A stretch of 11,556 bases of DNA from a virus (IMGVR_UViG_648276659_000002:1-11556), one strand, 5' to 3'; shown: positions 10,951-11,521, counted from the stretch's first letter. The notes: generated by a model not told the origin, from the sequence alone. Translations and numbers: made by a program.

Positions 10951-11166
10951 ATGAAATCAATGGACAAAATCTCAACTGGCATTGCCTACGGCACCTCAGC
11001 AGGTAGTGCCGGGTACTGGTTTTTACAGTGGCTTGATCAGGTCAGTCCGTCACAGTGGGCTGCGATTGGTGTACTGGGGAGTCTGGTTCTGGGCTTCCTG
11101 ACTTATCTGACAAATCTGTACTTCAAAATCAGAGAAGACAAGCGTAAGGCTGCACGGGGAGAGTAA
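10951..11166 (+). CDS. S: Phage-21-type pinholin (S21, dual-start holin/antiholin)
   Basis: 71 aa with MKSMDK dual-start motif. TMD1 carries GTSAGSAG (SAR-like) and is followed by a second TMD and charged C-terminus. Matches phage 21 S as recalled. RBS GGAGG 7 nt upstream. Confidence 0.9.
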
Positions 11167-11170
11167 TTCA

Positions 11171-11521
11171 ATGACTCAAAACTATGAACTGATTGTGAAA
11201 GGGATCCGCAATTTTGAGAATAAAGTTACGGTAACTTTAGCGTTACGGGACAAAAAACGCTTTGACGGCGAAATTTTTGACCTGGACATCTCGCTGGACC
11301 GTGTTGAAGGTGCCGCGCTGGAGTTTTATGAGGCAGCAGCCAGAAGGAGCATCAGACAGGTCTTCCTGGATGTTGCTGCCGGGTTATGTGAAGGGGATGA
11401 GCAGTCGCCGGAAAAGCGCCCCGTAATTTTAGAGGCGCAGAATGTGTGGATAACCTACAAAGGAAAGCTACCAGGAATAATTACTGGTTCTCTGAAGACT
11501 CCTCCGGAATCACAACATTAA
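11171..11521 (+). CDS. Hypothetical protein encoded immediately after the holin
   Basis: 116-aa ORF, ATG 11171 with GGGGAGAG upstream, 4 nt after the holin stop. It is not an endolysin (no SAR domain or lysozyme motifs). Positionally comparable to small genes found between holin and lysozyme in some E. coli prophages (a ydfR-like slot, from memory). Confidence 0.6.
   Translation: MTQNYELIVKGIRNFENKVTVTLALRDKKRFDGEIFDLDISLDRVEGAALEFYEAAARRSIRQVFLDVAAGLCEGDEQSPEKRPVILEAQNVWITYKGKLPGIITGSLKTPPESQH

Follow-up and report, generated by a model that had tools for sequence, protein, structure and literature searches.

The lysis cassette closest to the one described here is that of the cryptic prophage Qin of E. 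coli K-12, essQ-ydfR-rrrQ-rzpQ/rzoQ (b1556-b1553), in which ydfR lies between the holin and lysozyme genes, starting 4 nt past the holin stop codon and overlapping the start of rrrQ by 4 nt at its own stop. The same order, holin-YdfR-lysozyme-(ant)-Rz, has been recorded in BP-4795 (ORF46-48), Stx2 phage 86 (gp04-07), mEp460 (gp54-57) and vB_EcoS-689R5, where the second protein is annotated as 'YdfR family protein'. A second K-12 cassette, essD-rrrD-rzpD of DLP12 (phage 21 type, S21-R21-Rz), shares the logic of a pinholin, a SAR-type GH24 lysozyme and Rz, but it has no ydfR, the holin gene essD abutting rrrD directly.

We analysed a viral stretch of 11,556 bases (the window) in which a 71-aa ORF is followed, close to the 3′ end, by a 116-aa ORF on the same strand (Table 1). 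The 71-aa product matched Pfam PF04971 'Bacteriophage P21 holin S' (121.5 bits, cut-off 26, E 1.4e-35) and phrog_20/9876 'holin', and belongs to the same family as K-12 EssQ (82% identity) and EssD (87% identity). Its N-terminus MKSMDK is encoded from atg aaa tca atg at 10951-10962, a dual start (Met1-Lys2-Ser3-Met4) whose use in vivo for antiholin and holin is predicted. A first segment (residues 8-26) is weakly hydrophobic, rich in Gly, Ala and Ser and SAR-like (Kyte-Doolittle 0.22), and a second (residues 36-54) is strongly hydrophobic (Kyte-Doolittle 1.72). Judged by these features the protein is a phage-21-type class II holin of the pinholin family, and pinhole formation is predicted. The holin stop codon TAA (11164-11166) is separated from the ATG of the next gene at 11171 by four nucleotides (ttca, 11167-11170), and the purine run GGGGAGAG lies within the final holin codons (…RGE-stop), with its GGAG core ending 9 nt before that ATG. 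A first-pass annotation, made from the window alone, had likewise recognised a pinholin with an MKSMDK dual start and a SAR-like first transmembrane segment, followed at 4 nt by a gene with a good Shine-Dalgarno sequence; it had also called the 116-aa gene unknown and placed it in the position of a missing SAR endolysin, and these two claims did not hold.

The 116-aa protein belongs to the YdfR/DUF1327 family. It matched PF07041 over residues 1-112 (145.1 bits, cut-off 25, E 7.4e-43) and phrog_406 ('unknown function', E 4e-68), and the exact protein is present in RefSeq as WP_000193279.1, 'YdfR family protein', in the record NZ_CP146681.1. Residues 1-74 were 81% identical to K-12 YdfR (b1555), with 96% positives, and the tails beyond were unrelated. 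The HMM and structure searches suggested by the first-pass annotation gave divided results, the former placing the protein in PF07041 and phrog_406 and the latter returning weak, generic matches only. Its description of the protein as soluble-looking and devoid of lysozyme features stood: domain searches of the 116-aa protein for a lysozyme, amidase, peptidase or Rz/Rz1 domain found none. The annotation had named an endolysin or spanin match for this protein as the result that would overturn its reading; no such domain matched, and the edge of the window lay outside the reach of that test.

The impression that the gene stands instead of a SAR endolysin arose because the window ends too early, stopping 35 nt past the ydfR stop codon. 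The final 957 bases (10600-11556) were 100% identical to a prophage of E. coli MS 196-1 (NZ_CP146681.1, locus L001), onto which all ORFs of the window can be placed with a constant coordinate offset of 1401. In this record a 177-aa lysozyme gene starts 64 nt after the ydfR stop (63 intergenic bases), with an ATG that corresponds to position 11585, 29 nt past the last base of the window, and is followed by an Rz gene matching PF03245, so that inspection of the downstream sequence, as the first-pass annotation had advised, revealed both an endolysin and a spanin. The 177-aa lysozyme matched PF00959 (E 1.4e-24) and the PDB chains 3hde (E 4e-16), 3hdf (E ~5e-16) and 4zpu (RrrD, E 8e-16), deposited as 'Lysozyme' and 'Lysozyme RrrD'; 3hde and 3hdf are structures of the phage 21 SAR endolysin. 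In the translation the N-terminus of the 177-aa lysozyme, MNAKIRYGLSAAVLALIAVGAPAP, is followed by E35-x8-D44-x5-T50, and this spacing, E-x8-D-x5-T, characterises the catalytic site in the group to which the phage 21 endolysin belongs. Residues 7-24 (YGLSAAVLALIAVGAPAP) are rich in Ala, Gly and Leu, with a maximum Kyte-Doolittle value of 1.87, a sequence compatible with a SAR domain, and release from the membrane is predicted. With a lysozyme of GH24 features and Rz downstream, the pinholin therefore has its expected partners. We conclude that in identity and architecture the 116-aa gene is very probably an ordinary YdfR/DUF1327 member in a cassette of pinholin, YdfR, SAR-type GH24 lysozyme and Rz that is standard among Escherichia lambdoid prophages. 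This arrangement is already known, being annotated in RefSeq, present in K-12 and recorded in several phage genomes, and the ydfR copy in the window is a typical member with no departure from its family.

Table 1. Features of the window and of related loci. Coordinates without a prefix are window positions; those with an L prefix refer to individual related loci, L001 being the prophage in NZ_CP146681.1.
Feature	Coordinates	Strand	Basis
HNH endonuclease gene or fragment	5875-6318 (L001 7276-7719)		
HNH endonuclease gene or fragment	7365-7931 (L001 8766-9332)		
Q antiterminator gene	9351-9869		
Late promoter pR′, TTGACA-18 nt-CATAAT, overlapping the end of the Q gene	9847-9876	+	Promoter scan, 11/12 matches; aligns base for base with annotated HK75 pR′
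Insert between pR′ and tR′	9881-10578		Comparison with HK75
Hairpin plus T-run within the insert	9917-9937		
HNH-AP2 homing-endonuclease ORF within the insert	10064-10576 (L001 11465-11977)		PF13392 and PF00847
tR′ terminator hairpin and T-run of the late leader	10581-10625	+	Aligns with annotated HK75 Tr′; strong hairpin in RNA fold
Non-coding late leader (315 bp)	10581-10895		
S21-type class II holin, 71 aa, dual start Met1/Met4	10951-11166	+	PF04971; phrog_20/9876; EssQ 82%; TMD1 KD 0.22, TMD2 KD 1.72
Shine-Dalgarno sequence GGGGAGAG for ydfR, in the last holin codons	11156-11163	+	Raw sequence; junction in 15/15 loci; precedes the lysozyme ATG in ydfR-less PA2
ydfR, 116-aa ORF	11171-11521	+	PF07041; WP_000193279.1
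ydfR N-terminal DUF1327 core, residues 1-74, three beta strands and one long helix	11171-11392	+	PF07041; K-12 YdfR 81%; AlphaFold2; dN/dS 0.2-0.5
ydfR variable C-terminal tail, residues 75-116, and stop	11393-11521	+	pLDDT <50; tails differ among loci
Leader ahead of the lysozyme ATG	L001:12940-12985		Conserved (A)TCCTGATAAATATCC
177-aa lysozyme	L001:12986-13519		PF00959
Convergent small ORFs after DUF1327	L006:3317-3631, L007:2958-3218, L008:2744-3040, L009:3311-3583	-	
Convergent small ORFs after DUF1327	L010:3500-3760, L020:3282-3506, L021:696-1001, L022:768-1328	-	

Cassettes with and without ydfR

The holin, the YdfR N-domain, the lysozyme and Rz were placed by tblastn in every fetched locus. 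A single order was found in all 15 ydfR loci, a set that includes K-12 Qin, the phages vB_EcoS-689R5, mEp460, BP-4795, Stx2 phage 86, PhiR12_5 and Evi, and genomes of E. coli, E. ruysiae, E. albertii and Shigella: a 71-aa holin, its stop codon plus 3-4 nt, ydfR (72-268 aa), a spacer, a 177-aa lysozyme, an optional ant and Rz. The junction GAGAG-stop-3 or 4 nt-ATG was kept throughout, the lysozymes were 92-100% identical, and the spacer between ydfR and the lysozyme gene ranged from the 4-nt overlap of K-12 to about 450 nt. Between Qin and the window lineage the identity was 82% for the holin, 81% for the YdfR N-domain and 94% for the lysozyme; K-12 YdfR differs in its length of 103 aa and in an unrelated tail after residue 74, and its overlap with rrrQ contrasts with the 63-nt spacer of the window lineage. 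The N-domains of Stx-phage YdfRs were only 53-55% identical to that of the window, YdfRs of Stx and other lambdoid phages ranged from 104 to 268 aa, and some of these loci carried a convergent small ORF ahead of the lysozyme gene.

YdfR is optional in pinholin cassettes, the 177-aa lysozyme being found in 386 phage records and ydfR in 101. The Stx2a phage PA2 (933W-like) combines a holin of the same family with the same 177-aa lysozyme (92.7% identity) but lacks ydfR, and its lysozyme ATG occupies the slot at stop plus 4 nt behind GGGGAGAG that is used by ydfR in the window. DLP12 has a lysozyme of the 165-aa R21/RrrD type, which shares only about 32-34% identity with the 177-aa enzyme of the ydfR cassettes. 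Every ydfR-bearing cassette showed a conserved (A)TCCTGATAAATATCC ahead of the lysozyme ATG with no GGAG-type Shine-Dalgarno sequence (Table 1 for L001; equivalents in L002-L011 and L015). Since the lysozyme gene in these cassettes has the TCCTGATAAATATCC leader and not a holin-embedded Shine-Dalgarno sequence as in PA2, insertion of ydfR would change endolysin translation, uncoupling the endolysin from the holin.

Protein anatomy, selection and distribution of YdfR

The 116-aa protein is free of hydrophobic segments (maximum Kyte-Doolittle value over 19 residues 0.69) and has a pI of 5.5; we predict it to be soluble. An AlphaFold2 model built from a 19-sequence alignment, with a mean pLDDT of 61.5 that denotes moderate model confidence, placed strands at residues 5-14, 18-27 and 34-43 and a helix at 50-74, the pLDDT being 66-84 in this block and below 50 in the tail. 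A Foldseek search of the model against BFVD returned nothing at E 0.001 or better, the fold matches being weak and generic. Sequence searches of the protein gave no match in the PDB at E up to 1 and none in NCBIfam. Positions Y5, E6, L7, V9, K10 and N14 and the motif E46-G-A-x-L-E-F-Y-E54 (EGAxLEFYE) are invariant or nearly so across the family. Past residue 74 the family has at least six unrelated mosaic tail classes, in proteins of 72 to 268 aa; the tail of the window protein, SPEKRPVILEAQNVWITYKGKLPGIITGSLKTPPESQH, is of a common class, and others are coiled-coil-like extensions (176-183 aa), a 268-aa form, the K-12 tail or no tail at all (72 aa, phage Evi). The C-terminal tail would be a disordered appendage shuffled by recombination. 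Estimates of dN/dS for the N-domain were 0.2-0.5, and were still 0.2-0.3 between lineages with saturated synonymous sites (dS >1); with values of 0.04-0.15 for the holin and 0.04-0.10 for the lysozyme, ydfR evolves faster than both of its neighbours. The N-terminal domain is under purifying selection, and ydfR is a real coding gene.

Homologues of ydfR were found in 4349 of 5426 complete E. coli genomes (~80%), K-12 included, at up to 10 copies per genome, and the 101 phage records that carry one are all of Escherichia lambdoid or Stx phages. The DUF1327 family is narrow: an exhaustive HMMER search of 1.84 billion proteins yielded only 65 representatives at the 50% identity level; a 3128-aa match (P0160), a G2F-repeat protein aligned through its beta-rich repeats, was set aside as spurious. 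Among 185,579 GTDB species genomes ydfR occurred in Escherichia and Shigella, plus two metagenome-assembled genomes. Contigs of the latter, L013 (labelled Veillonella parvula) and L015 (labelled Bacillota bacterium), each carry a complete holin-ydfR-lysozyme cassette with a lysozyme 93-94% identical to that of the window lineage. The two loci are 73-81% identical to E. coli prophage sequence and most likely represent Escherichia binning contamination, a true occurrence in Firmicutes being less probable.

Possible roles of YdfR in the late operon

The holin and ydfR lie downstream of pR′ and tR′ and are therefore part of the Q-dependent late operon that begins at pR′, in which Q-modified polymerase would have to pass tR′ to reach the lysis genes. 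YdfR would be translated from the Shine-Dalgarno sequence in the last codons of the holin, and so would be made in the cytoplasm together with the pinholin. It would stand outside the envelope-disrupting machinery as moron-like late-operon cargo. The most divergent DUF1327 members (31-39% identical, above the Pfam cut-off) sit outside lysis cassettes, one of them between lambda-like tail genes I and J and another between M and L, and a 51%-identical gene lies directly after Rz; such sites in late operons are typical moron positions. The two contigs on which DUF1327 lies among tail genes, L020 and L021, gave no megablast match in the phage collection. The presence of homologues in tail-gene clusters argues that the function of YdfR is not mechanistically tied to the holin or endolysin. 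Together with the optional nature of ydfR, as seen from PA2 and DLP12, this favours one of the two suggestions of the first-pass annotation, that the gene is cargo in the lysis cassette.

An activity for the K-12 protein is suggested by a bacterial two-hybrid screen in which YdfR was recovered, its residues 1-72 being sufficient for signals with RNase E and RNase G constructs and a full-length short-linker fusion scoring with Rne 1-597 only (Göpel et al., RNA Biol 2026, PMC13232886). In the same study FLAG-tagged Rne 1-598 co-eluted with Strep-YdfR from lysates, and the Strep-YdfR eluate was rich in nucleic acid that resisted DNase; the contact with RNase E was recorded only for overexpressed, tagged K-12 YdfR, and RNA may bridge it (PMC13232886). 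YdfR overexpression in K-12 caused no growth defect and changed few transcripts, and RNA-seq under standard growth yielded almost no ydfR reads (PMC13232886), the latter fitting the placement of the gene in a late operon.

As the window protein is 81% identical to K-12 YdfR in exactly the region that sufficed, binding of RNase E and/or RNA by the N-domain is the best available mechanism, which we propose tentatively. The targets of the 74-residue beta3-alpha domain would be those reported for the Qin orthologue, namely the catalytic half of RNase E and/or RNA. Such binding could adjust RNA decay late in infection. Host RNase E is modulated by the phage proteins T7 gp0.7 and phiKZ Dip. Should the K-12 result apply here too, YdfR would resemble them in being a small phage protein that contacts RNase E, as a functional analogue only: it has no sequence relationship to either, its contact is reported on the catalytic N-terminal half, and its role as a modulator is a prediction. 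The 2026 report makes a role of DUF1327 in the phage testable, and the question it raises concerns the whole family and is not specific to the window.

The main alternative, also raised by the first-pass annotation, is that YdfR times or regulates lysis as a cytoplasmic partner of the C-terminal tail of the pinholin or of the SAR endolysin, tuning either the trigger or the amount of endolysin. Its attraction lies in the location of the gene, which is nearly exclusive to the lysis cassette: all close homologues lie between holin and lysozyme, ydfR starts 3-4 nt past the holin stop behind a holin-embedded Shine-Dalgarno sequence in 15 of 15 loci, and the lysozyme is left with the conserved TCCTGATAAATATCC leader and no GGAG. 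We nevertheless consider this role unlikely, because cassettes without ydfR have the same holin family with the same lysozyme (PA2) or an R21-type lysozyme (DLP12), and distant DUF1327 members occupy tail-gene clusters far from any holin. YdfR also has neither a membrane segment nor a signal sequence, its overexpression leaves growth of K-12 unimpaired, and its dN/dS exceeds the low values of the holin and lysozyme between which it sits.

We give less credence still to a role in the lysogen, with ydfR as a moron that the prophage would express to the advantage of its host (envelope integrity, cold stress) or to keep out other phages. The gene is kept in cryptic prophages such as Qin and is present in 80% of E. 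coli genomes, it is often followed by convergent small ORFs as at typical moron slots, and a published study cites database evidence that cold stress induces the Qin cluster, along with a match in an envelope-integrity screen (PMC13232886). Against this, ydfR lies downstream of tR′ in a Q-dependent late operon and is almost without reads in K-12 under standard growth (PMC13232886), no PADLOC defence family matched YdfR at E up to 0.01, and ydfR is absent from the main text of the cited envelope screen, so we give the envelope link little weight.

It is highly improbable that ydfR is a non-functional spacer or decaying remnant, kept only through its position between two essential genes: mosaic tails of such different length and the frameshifted and fused variants in databases would suit this, but the N-domain ORF is intact across lineages with dS above 1 at a dN/dS of 0.2-0.3, the EGAxLEFYE motif is conserved, and the K-12 protein accumulates and can be purified. 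A pinholin truly lacking its SAR endolysin, with ydfR as the replacement, would be an unusual lysis system, but although no lysozyme ORF follows the holin within the 11,556 bases, this reading is refuted to near certainty by the endolysin and spanin genes that adjoin the window end in the identical record and by the lysozyme gene after ydfR in all other ydfR loci examined.

Partner ORFs and the late leader

DUF1327 genes are often followed by a convergent small ORF belonging to one of the unknown-function PHROGs 25324, 2572/DUF1823, 1853, 2411, 6806 and 18578 (Table 1); the ydfR of the window has no such partner. The pair of a 72-aa DUF1327 gene and phrog_25324 is found in the lysis cassette of phage Evi and again between tail genes M and L of the unrelated contig L021, the phrog_25324 partners being 61% identical and the DUF1327 proteins only 31%, which points to a mobile unit of two genes or to a hotspot for cargo. 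More speculatively, the 74-residue DUF1327 domain might be a mobile late-operon moron of enterobacterial lambdoid phages that engages host RNase E at its catalytic half (or RNA) during lysis and virion assembly and often travels with a convergent ORF, the slot between pinholin and endolysin being a recombination hotspot seeded by this unit.

The non-coding late leader ahead of the holin was 97-99% identical in 170 phage records, 116 of them of Salmonella phage, and the fold of its RNA exceeded that of shuffled controls in stability (z = -3.2). Near 10818 the leader has GGTTCGATTCC, which resembles the T-arm of a tRNA. A tRNA at 10700-10850 was considered and rejected: ARAGORN detected none, Rfam gave a sub-threshold tmRNA/tRNA-clan match only, and the region did not align with the pre-holin tRNA genes of vB_EcoS-689R5. 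In HK75 some 10 nt lie between pR′ and Tr′, but in the window this gap is taken up by an insert of about 700 bp with its own hairpin plus T-run and with an HNH-AP2 homing-endonuclease ORF; the short late-leader transcript therefore seems to have been invaded by a homing endonuclease cassette. This ORF is one of three HNH endonuclease genes or fragments in the 11.5 kb of the window, which is early and late-regulatory prophage DNA; the three include a pseudogene fragment with an AP2-domain ORF after it, and such a density of homing-endonuclease-like genes is unusually high.
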